From IMG/VR virus record IMGVR_UViG_3300029913_000003, positions 1-64,000 of that record: a DNA stretch of 64,000 nucleotides; one strand, written 5' to 3'. The position numbers and the translations under genes were made by a program. Position 1 is the stretch's first letter; every line of letters starts with the position of its first letter. This DNA comes from a virus. The notes beneath the pieces were generated by a model. The model did no database searches. It had not been told where the DNA came from and saw nothing but the letters and a program-made list of their open reading frames with translations. Shown here in pieces: positions 1 through 64,000 of this stretch.

Positions 1-1
1 T

Positions 2-127
2 ATAGATAGATTAAAAAGATCAAATCAGATAGATATGGATAAAGTCAATACAATTCTATTGGATAATATATCTATTAAATTCATTGAAAATTATATAAGA
101 AAAAGAAAACTTAATGAACTAAAATGA
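2..127 (+). CDS. 3' end of small-protein gene (5' partial) with C-terminal RKxKL tail
   Basis: Frame open from window edge, ends ...NYIRKRKLNELK*; TGA overlaps next ATG. Confidence 0.4.
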   Translation: MDRLKRSNQIDMDKVNTILLDNISIKFIENYIRKRKLNELK

Positions 128-390
128 GATTAATAACCAAATTTAACACTTTACAAGAATCGTATCATAATTTACAAATTCAATTAGCGAAATATGAGAT
201 TGAAAATTCTGAATTGCGTAGATTGAATAAAGAATTAATAGTATCTACTAATAATACAAAAATCGGTTATGAACATTTGAGAGATAAAATTATAAATAAT
301 CCAGAAACTATATTATATCACATAAAATTATCTAAAATTGAAAATTATTTACGTAAAGTTAAACTTAAACGATTAAATTTTAATAAATAA
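124..390 (+). CDS. hypothetical small protein, RKxKL-tail superfamily
   Basis: ORF track; C-terminal YLRKVKLKRL motif. Confidence 0.5.
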   Translation: MRLITKFNTLQESYHNLQIQLAKYEIENSELRRLNKELIVSTNNTKIGYEHLRDKIINNPETILYHIKLSKIENYLRKVKLKRLNFNK

Positions 391-393
391 ATT

Positions 394-615
394 ATGAATA
401 TAAATATTGATGAAGAATATCAAAAATTAGAAAATGATTTTAAAGAATTACAAGATAATTTTAAAAAACTTAATAATTATACTAATTATTTACAAAATTC
501 ATATGACAAATTAAAAGATTATTTATTAAATACTGAATTAGTTTTAAATGATATTGATTTTAAAGTTATTGAGTTATATGTGAGTAAAACTAAACTTAAA
601 AAATTAAGTAAATAA
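394..615 (+). CDS. hypothetical small coiled-coil protein, tail KTKLKKLSK
   Basis: ORF track; 4-nt spacing to neighbours. Confidence 0.5.
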   Translation: MNINIDEEYQKLENDFKELQDNFKKLNNYTNYLQNSYDKLKDYLLNTELVLNDIDFKVIELYVSKTKLKKLSK

Positions 616-618
616 AAT

Positions 619-963
619 ATGGATAACATAATAATATTATCACTATTTATTATAATATCATGTATATTATCATACATATTATTATATATAATGTTTGATT
701 ATGAATTTAAATTTAATGATATTATTATTCTTTTTAATAAAATAAAAATAATAAGATCCTCTGAATATAAATCAAATATTAAAATTAAAGATTTAGCAAT
801 AAGTGACAAATTAGATAAATATAGTTTAAAAGATATTGAAACCATATTAAATTATGATAATTTATATAAATCAGATCCTGATATTAAATTTATAATATTA
901 GATTATGAGAAAAAAGATATTGAGAAATATATTAGAAAAAAGAAACTTCAAAAAATAAAATAA
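619..963 (+). CDS. small membrane protein, N-terminal TM helix plus IRKKKLQKIK tail
   Basis: ORF track; hydrophobic N-terminus; tail shared with next two genes. Confidence 0.55.
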   Translation: MDNIIILSLFIIISCILSYILLYIMFDYEFKFNDIIILFNKIKIIRSSEYKSNIKIKDLAISDKLDKYSLKDIETILNYDNLYKSDPDIKFIILDYEKKDIEKYIRKKKLQKIK

Positions 964-992
964 TTATTACGATAAAAAGTAAATAAAATATT

Positions 993-60815: not shown

Positions 60816-61156
60816 AAGTTAAATTTTTCTTCTGCTTCTTTTTTAATTAAATAGTTATTATATTCATTTGGATAATTTTTTATAATATTTTCATATTGCT
60901 TATCAGTCAATAAATATGTAAAATAGTAACCTTTATTATTTTTAACATTCCAATCTGCTCCTGCTTCAATTAAAATGTTAACTATCTGCATATAATCATG
61001 CTGTGCTGCATAAAATAATGGAGTACGACCATCAATAGCTTTAATATTTATATCAGTGCCAGTACGAATTAAATGTTTAATTCTATTAATATCACCTTTT
61101 AAAATTGCATTAAATAAATCAATGCCTTTATCTTCAAATAATTTTATATATTTCAT
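60812..61156 (-). CDS. family E cassette protein with ankyrin repeats
   Basis: GRTPLFYAAQHDYMQIVNILIEAGADWNVKNNKG. Confidence 0.6.
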   Translation of the reverse strand: MKYIKLFEDKGIDLFNAILKGDINRIKHLIRTGTDINIKAIDGRTPLFYAAQHDYMQIVNILIEAGADWNVKNNKGYYFTYLLTDKQYENIIKNYPNEYNNYLIKKEAEEKFNL

Positions 61157-61464
61157 ATGTTAAATTTATTTATATTCTTCCAAAGTTCTGGATCAGTTGA
61201 CATTCTAAAAAATGGTTCTTCTTTAAAATTATTATGAGTTATCCAATTTTCAACAGTAAATTTATTAATATCACTAGATCCATTATAATATCTAAATGGT
61301 GGATATTCTAAATCTTCTATTTTTGCAAATGTATATGTGATTCCATTATAATCAATTAATTTAACTAAATATTTTTTATTTTTATTATAATTACTATTAA
61401 AACTATAATATGATCCAATATTAAGATTTAATTCTATTTTTTCAAATGTTTTTATATATTTCAT
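61153..61464 (-). CDS. family E cassette protein (unique core)
   Basis: MKYIKTFEK ... NINKFNI. Confidence 0.55.
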   Translation of the reverse strand: MKYIKTFEKIELNLNIGSYYSFNSNYNKNKKYLVKLIDYNGITYTFAKIEDLEYPPFRYYNGSSDINKFTVENWITHNNFKEEPFFRMSTDPELWKNINKFNI

Positions 61465-61871
61465 ATGTTAAATTTATTTGAACTTATTATCAAATCAAAA
61501 TCATCTTTATTTATTTGATTTATTATATAATCAACATGTTTAGCTGTTATGCTAAATGTATATATACAATTATATTCATTTTTAACTAAATCTAATCCAT
61601 CTATAGTTTCAAAATATTCTTCAATAATATTAAATTCATCATGAATATTTGATAATTTCAAATAAGTTTCTCCTAATATTATAGCAAATTCAAATGTTGT
61701 TGAAGAAGGTGTCTTTGAATAAAAAGATATTTCATTATGATATTTATATATTTTATTATAATTTGAAGTTAGATTAAAATCTAATGATAATATAAAATTT
61801 ACTAAAAAATTCATAAAATAAGCACTATTATCAGTTAAATCATATTTCTCAAATGTTTTTATATATTTCAT
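61461..61871 (-). CDS. family E cassette protein (unique core; first gene of array)
   Basis: MKYIKTFEK ... SSNKFNI. Confidence 0.55.
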   Translation of the reverse strand: MKYIKTFEKYDLTDNSAYFMNFLVNFILSLDFNLTSNYNKIYKYHNEISFYSKTPSSTTFEFAIILGETYLKLSNIHDEFNIIEEYFETIDGLDLVKNEYNCIYTFSITAKHVDYIINQINKDDFDLIISSNKFNI

Positions 61872-61889
61872 ATTATTATTTATTATTTA

Positions 61890-63539
61890 TTATTTATTAT
61901 TATTATTTAACTTTTCAATTGCTTCATTCATAATATCATCTGTTATACCTAATTCATGAGTGGTTTTAACAATATGTTTTTTATTAAATACATCATATAA
62001 ATCATGCTTATTATCATCTATAATTATAAAATTACTAACTATTTTATTATTTTTCAACCAATCTTTTATATCGGCACCTCTTTTTTTAGATTTGTCATTT
62101 GGAACACAGTCATATATTTTATATTTAAAACCTGCTTTTTTCATCATATCTTCTATTTTACTTTTAGGTTTATCATCTCTATATGATGAAGATAAAACAA
62201 CTTTAGCATCTGTTTTTTCAATTATTGTGTTTAAATTACTCATGGCAGTTTTACTCCATTTATCAGGCTCATTAAAAAATTTATGATAATTTACATCAGA
62301 ATTTTTATTATAAGGAATAAGTGGTCCATCAATATCTTCAAATATTACTTTTATTCCTCCATCTTTTTCTTTTTCTTTATCTTTTTCAATAGTTTTTATT
62401 ATACCATTAAATGATTCTAATCTGGAATAATTTTCATCATCTGCATCTATTATTATCCAAGGAGCATTTTTAGTATTTGTTTTTTTGAAAATTTCATTTA
62501 TATATTTAGTAAATTCGTCCCATTTATCTAAAGTTTGTTCATCATTCTTACTAAATTTCCAATATTTTAATGGGTTAGATTTTCTTAATTCAAACCTCAT
62601 TTTTTGTACATCCTGAGATATAGAAAACCATATTTTTATAAGTATTATATCATCATCAATTAATTTATCTTCAAAATTATTGACTTCTTTCATGAATTTA
62701 TTATATTTATCTTCATTTGAATATCCCATTACAGGTTCTACATAACCTCTTGTATACCAAGATCTATCAAAGAACACAATTTCACCGTTTTTAGGTAACA
62801 CTTTTTCATATCTTTCAAACCAATTATCACTTTCTTCTTCTGAAGGAATACCAAAAGTTTGAACTTTAAAATGCTTAGGATCAAGAAATCTTGTTATATT
62901 TCTAATTGCAGATCCTTTTCCTGCTGCATCTCTACCTTCAAATATAATTAACACTTTTTTATTATTATATACAATCCACTCTTGTAATTTCAATAATTCT
63001 ATTTGATATTTATATTTTGTTTTTTGATAATCATCAAAAGGTACTTTATTTATTTTAATATCTATTTTATTATATGGTTCATATGACTTATCAGTTTCAA
63101 TTTTATTGTAGAAAAATTCATAAGTGTTATCTATATATCTATCAACATTATCAAGATATGCTTTGAAAACACTATCTGCATTCTTTATATTAATATCAAA
63201 TGAATTTGTTATAGAATATATTTTTAGAATATCATTAGCAAATTTACCTAATCTCATCTGTTTAATTATATCATCATCTACATTATTTAAAAAATCTTTA
63301 AATAAATCTTTAAATTTACCCATAGTATTTTTATTATAATTATTTAATAAATATGTTTTATATGATTCTAAATCTTCTTTAATTTGAGTTTTATAGAAAT
63401 CTAATGTGTATTTTTTATCAATAGATTGCTTCAAATTTATAATTAAGCTTTTAAAAGAATGAATAAGGTTTTCCAATTCATCTTTACTACGATGAAAAAA
63501 AGCTTCATTTAGTTTATTATAATCATTATAGTTTAACAT
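61890..63539 (-). CDS. polyphosphate kinase 2 (PPK2) family protein with C-terminal HAD-like domain
   Basis: FEGRDAAGKGSAI ... FDRSWYTRGYVEPVMGY ... PLKYWKFSKNDE ... APWIIIDADD; C-terminus FEDIDGPL HAD motif I. Confidence 0.65.
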   Translation of the reverse strand: MLNYNDYNKLNEAFFHRSKDELENLIHSFKSLIINLKQSIDKKYTLDFYKTQIKEDLESYKTYLLNNYNKNTMGKFKDLFKDFLNNVDDDIIKQMRLGKFANDILKIYSITNSFDINIKNADSVFKAYLDNVDRYIDNTYEFFYNKIETDKSYEPYNKIDIKINKVPFDDYQKTKYKYQIELLKLQEWIVYNNKKVLIIFEGRDAAGKGSAIRNITRFLDPKHFKVQTFGIPSEEESDNWFERYEKVLPKNGEIVFFDRSWYTRGYVEPVMGYSNEDKYNKFMKEVNNFEDKLIDDDIILIKIWFSISQDVQKMRFELRKSNPLKYWKFSKNDEQTLDKWDEFTKYINEIFKKTNTKNAPWIIIDADDENYSRLESFNGIIKTIEKDKEKEKDGGIKVIFEDIDGPLIPYNKNSDVNYHKFFNEPDKWSKTAMSNLNTIIEKTDAKVVLSSSYRDDKPKSKIEDMMKKAGFKYKIYDCVPNDKSKKRGADIKDWLKNNKIVSNFIIIDDNKHDLYDVFNKKHIVKTTHELGITDDIMNEAIEKLNNNNK

Positions 63540-63718
63540 TAGGCACTAATATTTTTATTTGTATTATATATAAAAAAATAAGATCGTTATTTTATATTAA
63601 ACTATTTTTATTTATGAATAATTATTTATATCTTTGTAATCTTAAATATTTTTAATGCTTATGATAAAAAAATATCATAAATATTATATTAAACTTTATA
63701 TTAATTAAAAAATAAAAA

Positions 63719-64000
63719 TATGAAAAATATTGAAAAAACTAAATTTGAAATTAATAGTATAGACTTTAGTAATTTGAATGACACTGATTCAAATAATTTA
63801 AAAATAGAGTTATTGAAATATAATGATGATGAATTAAAAGAATTATTATTATATATAATGGACGATAAATTATCAATAAACATAAATATGGATAGTGATC
63901 CAAATTTAAAAATACTATTTGATGATAAAAGAATTATGAATATTCTTGAAACCATGTATGATGAAAATAAAAAAGAAATGGATAATATAGAAAAAAATAC
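63719..64000 (+). CDS. hypothetical protein (3' partial, runs off window)
   Basis: ATG at 63719 with open frame to window end: MKNIEKTKFEINSIDFSNLNDTDSNN... Confidence 0.45.

Follow-up and report, generated by a model that had tools for sequence, protein, structure and literature searches.

The stretch of DNA analysed here, referred to below as the window, comprises 64,000 nucleotides (positions 1 to 64,000 of IMG/VR virus record IMGVR_UViG_3300029913_000003). It is very probably part of the genome of a huge phage, and the source genome is probably ~350 kb in size. We are also highly confident in a more specific reading, in which a huge tailed phage of lytic type, expressed by the machinery of a Bacteroidota host, has the window as one of its hypervariable accessory regions. 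An earlier note, made from the letters of the window, had described prokaryote-type expression signals together with eukaryote-type proteins, and had favored a large phage or integrative element of an AT-rich, host-associated prokaryote that had captured eukaryote-like genes. The large phage is supported by the findings presented below (phage relatives of 462 and 735 kb, IMG/VR contigs of up to 330 kb, T4-like hallmark genes, and a GOLLD RNA). The integrative element is not, as no integrase or attachment site was seen. AT-richness is a property of the phage itself rather than of an AT-rich, host-associated prokaryote, and its expression signals are indicative of Bacteroidota. The finding that the "eukaryote-like" genes all have bacterial or phage relatives accounts for the mixed signals. 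The capture of such genes was overstated, in view of bacterial major vault protein (MVP) homologues, a leucine-rich repeat (LRR) of the LPX type, and phage-specific termini on the ankyrin (Ank) and LRR proteins. A eukaryotic donor or host is needed for none of the window.

The link to sequenced phages was provided by the MVP gene:

2531..4984, + strand: MVP homologue of 817 aa, standing alone with a 113-nt leader and its own terminator

Pfam domains MVP_shoulder (E 5.5e-29), Vault_3 (E 5.6e-9) and Band_7 were all detected above their cut-offs, and the match to rat and human MVP in PDB (E 1e-16) was collinear over residues 328-748 of 817. The call of an MVP was thus upheld, with the domain order of the family; the N-terminal 330 residues carry no assignment, and formation of a cage by this protein is putative. 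The label "eukaryote-type" is weakened by full-length bacterial homologues with 38-50% identity in Saprospira, Chitinophagales, Cytophagales, Myxococcota, Caldilinea and many others; a homologue is also present in cultured Enhygromyxa salina. PHROGs v4 has no family for the window MVP. Among 50,697 phage records, the only MVP matches were LR756500 (462 kb) and LR756501/LR756503 (735 kb), with 50-52% identity over the full length. LR756500 as a whole genome has 24.3% GC and uses the standard code. T4 protein queries recovered from it a T4-like TerL (split), tail sheath, portal (carrying Pfam PF07230), prohead protease and UvsW. We infer that the genome from which the window derives carries hallmark genes of the same kind.

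The window also has close relatives among the IMG/VR viral contigs, of 105, 168 and 330 kb, whose proteins are 82-90% identical. Two window proteins besides MVP were recorded on a public contig of 346,561 bp, and window proteins were also recorded on contigs with sizes of 0.2-1 Mb. Identical copies of the MVP protein were found on 13 public metagenome contigs, of which one falls into this 0.2-1 Mb range. All public contigs carrying window genes are from metagenome assemblies. The 346,561-bp contig and the 330-kb relative would place the source genome above the 200 kb used to define a huge phage. In the survey of Al-Shayeb et al. 2020, all genomes larger than 634 kb fell into the Mahaphage clade, and Bacteroidetes hosts were predicted for these genomes (PMC7162821). 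The largest Mahaphage genome in that survey is likewise 735 kb; from this length alone we take the 735-kb record to belong to this set, the accession being absent from the main text (PMC7162821). The best accessory-gene matches of the window, to the 462-kb and 735-kb genomes, would be the basis for placing its phage in that clade.

LR756500 has homologues of just 8 among the 149 proteins encoded here, and the window is therefore a fast-evolving accessory region. Domain scans detected no ribosomal or other housekeeping genes in the 64 kb or in ~18 kb of flanks. A PHROGs scan of the first half of the window and of the large proteins without assignment gave several matches, few overall and none of them structural. 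A GOLLD RNA (Rfam RF02032, 278.9 bits vs. cut-off 150) was found at L006:979-1400 on the - strand of the flanking locus L006, corresponding to approximately 70,570-70,990 in window coordinates, ~7 kb past the end. It lies within an ORF-free stretch of ~3.9 kb (L006:883-4785; ORF, open reading frame), which has no open frame under any stop-codon reassignment. GOLLD RNAs are described from phages and prophages (PMC12286853). A gene for a protein cage (MVP) and a gene for an RNA cage (GOLLD) thus lie within ~70 kb on one phage genome. The GOLLD stretch also contains two tandem-repeat arrays, at L006:2196-2521 (93 nt x 3.5) and L006:4099-4603 (~109 nt x 4.8).

The expression signals of the window are those described for Bacteroidetes. 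The Shine-Dalgarno frequency, which the earlier note had proposed as a check, was determined as the presence of GGA at -20..-4: none of the 149 starts had it, compared with 13.3 per 149 expected from random 17-mers of the window. In controls, GGA was found in 12 of 20 starts of T4 and in 4 of 127 starts of LR756500. The frequency of A upstream of the starts peaked at -3, -6, -9, -12 and -13, with values of 0.69, 0.62, 0.66 and 0.67 at -3, -6, -12 and -13. Ribosome profiling of Flavobacterium johnsoniae has identified positions -3, -6, -12 and -13 as positive determinants of translation in Bacteroidetes, which lack Shine-Dalgarno pairing (PMC6847099). The promoter specific to the primary sigma factor of Bacteroidetes consists of TTTG at -33 and TAnnTTTG (TAHHTTTG) at -7, with no G at the variable positions (PMC6847099). 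A scan for the full motif TTTG-N18-22-TAnnTTTG gave the following sites:

13348..13379, + strand: predicted Bacteroidota-type promoter TTTG-N20-TATTTTTG, 26 nt upstream of the first gene of a long + block
5037-5067, 23111-23142, 35199-35229, 41593-41624, 53327-53358: similar predicted promoters

These six sites are intergenic and lie 12-53 nt upstream of co-oriented operon starts (5116, 13405, 23167, 35282, 41636 and 53381), and none has a G at the variable positions. Intergenic DNA accounts for 13.7% of the window. The promoter signal comes from the placement of the sites, not from the whole-window count. TTTGTA was the top hexamer upstream of the 38 genes preceded by a gap (12 vs. 2.7 expected; 4.4-fold in an unbiased count), and an element (T/C)AnnTTTG(T/C), mostly TAnnTTTG, was present at at least 13 gap-preceded genes. 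Promoters of the sigma-70 type were not enriched in the window (217 vs. 229 expected), nor was the mimivirus early motif AAAATTGA (5 vs. 2.8 expected). A diderm bacterial host is also in keeping with the lipobox lipoproteins, MgtC and the LpxH-like enzyme. From these signals, Bacteroidota appears to be the most likely host phylum, a call that we hold somewhat less firmly than the assignment to a huge phage. The host phylum can thus be read from promoter and leader signals in a region free of hallmark genes.

The layout and code of the window are those of a bacterial or phage genome region. GC content was 21.4%, in agreement with the ~21% given previously. The gene set (codon-usage scored, standard bacterial code) comprises 149 genes with a coding density of 86% and a mean length of ~125 aa, arranged in eight long blocks, each on a single strand. 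Exact 4-nt ATGA overlaps occur in long runs, as had been claimed, and are the modal spacing; the count was 24 of 141 same-strand neighbor pairs, close to but not above the "more than 25" of the earlier note, and the next spacing classes had 8 pairs each. Reading TAG or TGA as sense raised ORF coverage by only 2-4% (TAG: 72% to 77%), and TAG is the stop of 21 of the 149 genes, the proportion expected from background; the code of the window is therefore standard. Alternative codes were rejected, because only TAA as sense lifted coverage, which is meaningless at 79% A+T. The claim of standard code usage apart from one TAG case was thus borne out for the window.

Hairpins followed by T-runs occurred at 13 sites, compared with a mean of 4 (range 1-8) in first-order Markov simulations; a consensus terminator scan of the first 20 kb gave 3 sites vs. 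1.2 expected. Seven terminators are convincing (5021, 5328, 22925, 23067, 49260, 55680 and 57000). Those after the MVP gene and at convergent junctions are as follows:

5021..5055, + strand: intrinsic terminator after the MVP gene, a 15-bp stem followed by a T-run
5328..5371, both strands: bidirectional terminator at a convergent junction, a 20-bp stem flanked by an A-run and a T-run, scoring on both strands
57000..57047, no strand assigned: terminator hairpin at a convergent junction, a 20-bp stem flanked by an A-run and a T-run

The presence of terminators, noticed previously, is borne out, but only these last two sit at convergent gene ends, where at least seven had been placed. The window has four convergent junctions, and the other strong terminators follow co-directional genes.

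Several observations weigh against the identity and host assigned here. The homologues in LR756500 show no real synteny, and the link to that genome appears to consist of a few potentially mobile genes plus a common N-terminal signature. Neither the window nor its flanks of 8-10 kb yielded a gene for terminase, portal or capsid. Searches of IMG/VR with the portal of LR756500, used both singly and as an alignment, gave 80 loci, none of which was AT-rich enough and none of which carried window genes. In a protein search with a portal profile, none of the 120 matches listed (of 3,195) was on the 346,561-bp contig. On the supporting side, locus L262 (IMG/VR, same sample series, 5.7 kb) was recovered with a DNA pattern, biased by codon usage, for the TerL motif IITSTPNG; it encodes a split T4-like TerL 41% identical to that of LR756500. 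This TerL adjoins a HAD_SAK_2-like gene and also a gene for a protein 31-36% identical to the MKYIK...NKFNL family of the window; with 24% GC, however, L262 may come from a different, related phage. The full promoter motif was only 2-fold enriched over the whole window (10 vs. 5 +/- 2.2 expected). The host call would rest on expression signals and on published predictions for relatives.

The TerL gene of LR756500 (193332-197824; locus L020) is split directly after Walker A (ARQTGKC); the insert is intein-like, and additional ORFs separate the pieces. The same split arrangement is present in L262, L261 and L297.

Three other origins of the window were weighed. The first is a nucleocytoplasmic large DNA virus (NCLDV), i.e. 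a giant virus of eukaryotes such as an AT-rich mimivirus relative. NCLDVs also carry Ank and LRR families, tRNAs, translation-related genes and TnpB-like (Fanzor) genes, and their transcripts end at hairpins. The 21% GC, the many ORFans, the Ank and LRR paralogues, MVP, the PTH2-fold protein, the TnpB-family gene and the lack of a Shine-Dalgarno motif would all suit such a virus. Against it stand the 24 ATGA overlaps in operon-like runs, the mean gene length of ~125 aa, the T-runs after hairpins as in bacterial intrinsic terminators, the Bacteroidota-type promoters at operon starts, and the near-background count of AAAATTGA. Pfam scans of the window detected no NCLDV core domain (double-jelly-roll major capsid protein, A32 ATPase, D5 primase-helicase or PolB). 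The search for NCLDV and phage hallmarks beyond the window that had been proposed earlier found neither kind in the 8-10 kb flanks; it did find T4-like hallmarks in LR756500. The nearest relatives are phage genomes with such hallmarks, GOLLD RNA lies in the flank, and lipobox lipoproteins, MgtC and the LpxH-like enzyme are sensible only in a bacterial cell. An NCLDV origin is thus largely refuted already, and we consider it extremely improbable. A cellular replicon (a chromosome, megaplasmid or integrated element of an AT-rich bacterium or archaeon, e.g. a symbiont) is slightly less improbable, though still very unlikely. MVP homologues occur in contigs binned as bacteria and even as 'Promethearchaeota', and TnpB, MgtC, NadD, PPK2 and glycosyltransferase are ordinary cellular families. 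However, ~82 kb contained no housekeeping gene, nor was an integrase or attachment site seen; 82 of the 149 proteins have no in-window paralogue, and most have no Pfam or PHROGs family match. The binned contigs with MVP at 72-73% identity are short or AT-rich, and one of them (L118) carries phage-specific tail and terminus families. The relatives in IMG/VR are viral contigs of up to 330 kb.

The remaining alternative keeps the huge phage and places its host outside Bacteroidota, in another lineage independent of Shine-Dalgarno pairing, or assigns the signals to transcription or translation specificity borne by the phage. Bacteroidota are not the only lineage to have lost the Shine-Dalgarno motif, MVP homologues are spread over many phyla, and a motif upstream of three - genes could be a phage-specific promoter. 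This motif, TTTATATATAAT(A/G), was seen on the - strand in three instances only (12751-12762, 13301-13312 and 63562-63573), 23-34 nt upstream of the starts of the genes for TnpB, for the product of 12957-13268 and for PPK2; it may represent a second, phage-specific type of promoter. On the other side, the combination of TAnnTTTG at -7 and TTTG at -33, specific to Bacteroidetes (PMC6847099), is found at six operon starts; the A pattern at -3, -6, -12 and -13 matches as well (PMC6847099). The largest published relatives are predicted to be phages of Bacteroidetes (PMC7162821), provided that the accessions correspond as we suppose, and the lipoprotein signals are of the common '...SC' type. We therefore regard a host outside Bacteroidota as unlikely. 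MVP phylogeny was rejected as a source of host information, because homologues across many phyla have similar identity.

The window contains one gene interrupted by an amber codon, with a suppressor tRNA directly downstream:

22620..22940, + strand: PTH2-fold protein gene, a 106-codon frame with an in-frame TAG at 22746-22748
22963..23034, + strand: amber suppressor tRNA, anticodon CUA (ARAGORN; Rfam 55.2 bits), followed by a terminator at 23067-23096

This is the single TAG case of the earlier note, and it was found as described there, with the tRNA(CUA) in addition. The tRNA starts 22 nt after the frame, and a terminator at 22925-22949 overlaps the stop codon of the PTH2-fold gene. The TAG, the frame and the tRNA(CUA) are all kept in the IMG/VR relative L112 (92% nucleotide identity). 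Downstream of the TAG, L112 differs from the window by 8 synonymous and 5 conservative changes, indicating purifying selection on the read-through part. Twenty uninterrupted homologues (88-109 aa, metagenomic) were found; one further match, of 63 aa, is a piece of the window's own protein that had been called separately. The homologues have D, G, S, E or a gap at the position of the TAG, which indicates a tolerant loop position. The gene looks like one that is deliberately gated by an amber codon and paired with its own suppressor tRNA. A TAG-recoded genome (code 15/16) was rejected on the grounds that in-frame TAG occurs once and that TAG serves 21 of the 149 genes as their stop (counted in the window only, without late-gene regions).

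The assignment of this gene to PTH2 held at the level of the fold and failed at the level of family profile and sequence. No match to the PTH2 profile (PF01981) was obtained in searches of Pfam, NCBIfam and PDB by sequence or profile, and no precomputed Pfam domain was recorded on the 21 database matches (the 20 homologues and the window's own fragment). An AlphaFold model of homologue P0127 (69% identical, pLDDT 88) had 12 top fold matches, all of the PTH2 family. Matches to 2zv3, 1q7s, 1wn2, 3erj, 1rlk and 2gax had E 1e-4 to 5e-3 and TM 0.58-0.71; the next match had E 0.3. The structures matched are M. jannaschii MJ0051, human Bit1, PH1539, AF2095, TA0108 and Atu0240. The full-length PTH2-fold product might depend on the suppressor tRNA encoded directly downstream; we put this forward jointly with the reading of shared protein termini as address labels (see below), and the two together are doubtful.

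Two signatures of shared protein termini run through the window, and the families defined by them account for ~40% of its genes. The first is a basic amphipathic C-terminal helix with the pattern [RK]xxK[LIF]xx[ILMF] within the last 32 residues, typically ...EYRKEKLKEI, which was present in 47 of the 149 proteins (32%). The same pattern was found in none of the N-terminal windows and in 2 central windows; a stricter pattern was found 38 times, vs. 0.4 in shuffled tails. The bodies carrying this RKxKLxxI tail are of at least six unrelated kinds. They include ~25 SH3-like barrels, whose genes overlap in tandem arrays, as well as small helical proteins and two families having a membrane helix at the N-terminus. 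Tail genes are located e.g. at 619-1685, 5602-8502, 13405-17965, 23167-24334 and 25708-28840, and further at 31638-32191, 37047-37563, 40449-41893 and 48330-48566. Two arrays of the SH3-like family were delineated from translations and clustering, the first of them also with a structure model:

5602..7663, - strand: nine overlapping genes of ~62-94 aa encoding SH3-like barrels (MFKVGDKVVCID...)
25890..27756, + strand: second tandem array of SH3-like genes with a basic helix tail

In the first array, 7 of the 9 products match the RKxKLxxI tail, and two copies are truncated or degenerate. An AlphaFold model of the SH3-like family (pLDDT 85) consists of a five-stranded SH3/Tudor/KOW-like barrel followed by a helix that corresponds to the tail. 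The family is narrow, having only 6 database matches, some of which are apparently the window's own proteins. In gaps 17965-18745 and 28116-28616, which have no called genes, remnants of the SH3-like/tail family can still be seen; these are probably paralogues that are decaying or very short. Degenerate copies of the tail were also seen in gaps just upstream of starts 18745, 20594, 23824, 28616 and 48330.

In 36 of the 47 cases, the distance between the end of the RKxKL motif and the next start codon is -1 to 17 nt, which would suit a signal for the following gene; the other 11 have no start within 20 nt. A role of the motif as an RNA signal for the next gene was rejected, in view of the varying Leu codon (TTA, CTT, CTA, CTC or TTG) and the 11 copies without a nearby start. 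Because the Leu codon is free to vary and the model has the predicted helix packed after the SH3-like barrel, we read RKxKL as a protein motif. Its nearness to starts may be a consequence of the overlapping layout of the tandem arrays, and a dual role in protein and RNA may also apply. In LR756500 the tail occurs in 2 of 799 ORFs, a background level; it is present in the relative with MVP at 72% identity (L118).

The second signature combines a KFN(I/L) end, found on 13 proteins, with an MKY(I/L)Kx(F/Y)E start, found on 12 of these; the thirteenth starts with MKHLITY. The bodies of this family are unrelated (ankyrin, LRR and others). Its genes form two arrays:

51342..52751, - strand: four ATGA-joined MKY(I/L)Kx(F/Y)E...NKFN(I/L) genes, 31-36% identical to the gene adjoining TerL in L262
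58058..61871, - strand: nine ATGA-joined MKYIKxFE...KFN(I/L) genes, comprising four ankyrin (Pfam Ank), one LPX-type LRR (Pfam LRR_4) and four others

The termini are not mere by-products of the ATGA junctions, because the first and last genes of each array keep both. The Ank and LRR genes lie within 58058-61156. Both had been called previously, and both calls are confirmed: the four Ank proteins are set in a phage-specific frame of common termini, and the LRR protein (LRR_4, E 1.4e-15) has 20-residue LPELPxxL repeats of the bacterial LPX type. LR756500 has 12 genes with an MKYIKEYE start, the LRR homologue among them. Among 120 AT-rich IMG/VR loci recovered with the TerL-motif DNA pattern, 12 contained the MKYIK start signature, in a total of 17 ORFs.

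In T4, the internal proteins are diverse defence-countering proteins that have only an N-terminal capsid-targeting sequence in common (PMC3012670). The starts of T4 ipI (MKTFKEF) and ipII/III (MKTYQEFIAE) resemble MKYIKTFE of the window when compared by eye, and the bodies are diverse in both; unlike the T4 proteins, the window family also has a common C-terminus (NKFNI/L). No (L/I)xE protease site was evident directly after the common start of the MKYIK family. By analogy with T4, the two common termini might be address labels that load dozens of diverse small proteins into a compartment, either the capsid (for ejection, as in T4) or a vault cage made by the phage from the neighboring MVP gene. 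This idea is doubtful on present evidence, for the labels and for either compartment, and packaging and ejection of the MKYIK family is a hypothesis that draws on the T4 precedent. If true, the labels would constitute a cargo-targeting system of unusual breadth in a phage.

Genes with predicted functions in RNA repair and NAD salvage are dispersed over the window:

28833..29384, + strand: NadM-like nicotinamide-nucleotide adenylyltransferase (Pfam CTP_transf_like; PHROG 3462)
30195..31217, + strand: phage-type RNA ligase with PHA02142 OB and RNA_ligase domains (Pfam E 1.1e-35)
44955..45575, + strand: bacterial NadD-type nicotinate/nicotinamide-nucleotide adenylyltransferase (NCBIfam TIGR00482, 138 bits vs. 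cut-off 112)
54718-55656, + strand: polynucleotide kinase/3'-phosphatase (Pfam, NCBIfam), 36% identical to its LR756500 counterpart
56284-57006, + strand: CCA-adding-type nucleotidyltransferase (Pfam, NCBIfam)
57249..57587, - strand: cyclic-phosphate-processing receiver domain (cREC_REC) protein (Pfam E 1.6e-16; PHROG 1479)
61890..63539, - strand: PPK2 (polyphosphate kinase 2) fused to a 'Swiss Army Knife' RNA-repair HAD domain (PPK2 E 6e-73, HAD_SAK_2 E 4e-24)

The NadM-type call made earlier agrees with the best NCBIfam models of the first gene, which are of the archaeal/NadM type and below the curated cut-off; the protein also matches a phage family (PHROG). The RNA ligase matched 339 phage records with 37-43% identity. 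The set suggests counter-defence against anticodon nucleases and NAD depletion by the host, as far as domain content can indicate. A weak Tpt1-like match was seen at 47513-47920, and the upstream flank (L010:5123-7458) encodes a second RNA ligase and a DnaJ-domain protein.

The elements described earlier as intron-like tRNA bodies form a tandem trio:

41191-41288, ~41296-41366 and 41376-41468, + strand: three tandem non-canonical tRNA-like genes (Rfam tRNA)

Two of them scored 41.4 and 28.8 bits in the window, and scores in two relatives were 36.8-41.4 bits. A three-genome alignment revealed compensatory changes in the acceptor, anticodon and T stems, indicating that the trio are real structured RNAs. 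They have long, poorly conserved variable regions, and their anticodon loops (UAAAAGU or CAAAAAA) lack the universal U33. In one relative, the first element has the form of an ordinary type-II tRNA-Leu(UAA); the third is called 'tRNA-Phe(AAA)' by ARAGORN. Intron-containing tRNAs were rejected: no intron was shown, the anticodon stem-loops are intact and conserved, and the extra length is more plausibly a long variable region.

Other single genes with an assignment are as follows:

11271..12728, - strand: TnpB-family protein of 485 aa (Pfam OrfB_IS605 E 7e-10, Cas12f1-like_TNB E 9e-10)
20836..21360, + strand: SLOG/LOG-like (Lysine_decarbox) protein (Pfam E 7.9e-14; NCBIfam TIGR00725/TIGR00730 below cut-off)
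33094-33540 and 33566-33853, + strand: two lipoprotein genes with N-termini MKKLFLCALFSVLFLSC and MKKLILFSCILLFSC and no Pfam match
34384..34872, - strand: T4 gp30.3 homologue (Pfam Phage_30_3 E 1.6e-28; PHROG 652 E 6e-28)
49904-50608, + strand: LpxH-like metallophosphoesterase (Pfam; NCBIfam LpxH below cut-off)
50601-51326, + strand: family-2 glycosyltransferase (Pfam)
53381..54010, + strand: MgtC-family membrane protein (Pfam E 2.4e-33), with a predicted Bacteroidota-type promoter 23 nt upstream

The window also encodes a PspC-domain protein and, in total, two metallophosphoesterases, one of them the LpxH-like enzyme. The functions given for these and the preceding genes are predicted from their families. 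Calls of MgtC and of lipobox signal peptides at 33094 (MKKLFLCALFSVLFLSC) and 33566 (MKKLILFSCILLFSC) were both substantiated. The TnpB call likewise stands, RuvC and TNB domains having been found, and a homologue with 33% identity is present in LR756500. The embedded omega-RNA could not be demonstrated at its 3' end: no Rfam match was obtained (E <= 0.1), and the downstream fold had a z-score of -0.77. No convincing terminal repeats were detected at the ends of the TnpB element.

Two contigs already binned into cellular genomes carry an MVP with 72-73% identity to that of the window: L118 (JAFGOA010000025.1, in a 'Promethearchaeota archaeon' metagenome-assembled genome) and L117 (CAIWDQ010000265.1). 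L118 has 24.7% GC. Besides proteins with RKxKL tails, it encodes one of the form xIKTFE...FNL, and its place in an Asgard-archaeon genome is probably due to mis-binning of a phage contig. Related contigs have thus been binned into bacterial genomes and even into that of an Asgard archaeon.

In the proposed scheme, transcription would start at host-type TTTG/TAnnTTTG promoters and end at terminators formed by a hairpin and a T-run. Translation would proceed from A-rich leaders without Shine-Dalgarno pairing, often coupled through ATGA overlaps. The window would hold genes of the early, host-takeover type, packed in long same-strand operons. Their putative cargo comprises a tRNA/RNA-repair set (RNA ligase, kinase/phosphatase, CCA-adding enzyme, cREC, PPK2-HAD and the PTH2-fold protein), two NAD-salvage adenylyltransferases, envelope proteins (lipoproteins, MgtC, the LpxH-like enzyme and a glycosyltransferase), a vault homologue of the bacterial kind, and large lineage-specific families of small proteins. 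The answer as to identity is an ordinary one: one more huge phage of the kind described since 2019-2020. Starts without a Shine-Dalgarno motif, A-rich "Kozak-like" leaders and genes for MVP, Ank, LRR and PTH2-fold proteins can make such a phage resemble a giant virus.

Compared with Mimiviridae, the window is likewise AT-rich and has many ORFans, Ank and LRR paralogue families, tRNAs and hairpins at gene ends; unlike Mimiviridae, it has ATGA-coupled operons, T-run terminators, Bacteroidota promoters and bacterial envelope proteins. Some huge-phage genomes reassign UAG (PMC7162821). Like TAG-recoded phages (code 15/16, e.g. Lak), the window has a suppressor tRNA(CUA), and one of its conserved genes contains an in-frame TAG; in contrast to them, TAG is an ordinary stop in the window, and the only gated gene lies directly upstream of the tRNA. 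The MVP gene, AT-richness and the lack of a Shine-Dalgarno motif are common to the window and LR756500/LR756501/LR756503. LR756500 in addition has homologues of TnpB, polynucleotide kinase/phosphatase, cREC and LRR proteins and the MKYIKxYE gene family, whereas it lacks the RKxKLxxI tail, shares only the eight homologous proteins, and is less extreme in GC content than the window (21%). With T4, the relative LR756500 has in common TerL, portal, sheath and prohead protease, and the window itself shares with T4 a homologue of gp30.3 as well as a kinase/phosphatase and an RNA ligase, which make up an RNA-repair pair like that of T4; the genome of the window phage would be about twice as large or more, and its host phylum and expression signals differ. 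Vault homologues have also been reported from Caudoviricetes of the human gut, where they are closest to bacterial ones (Santos et al. 2023 preprint, 10.1101/2023.11.10.566534). The MVPs of the gut phages and of the window are alike in being bacterial-like and in belonging to tailed phages, and that of the window comes from an environmental huge phage.

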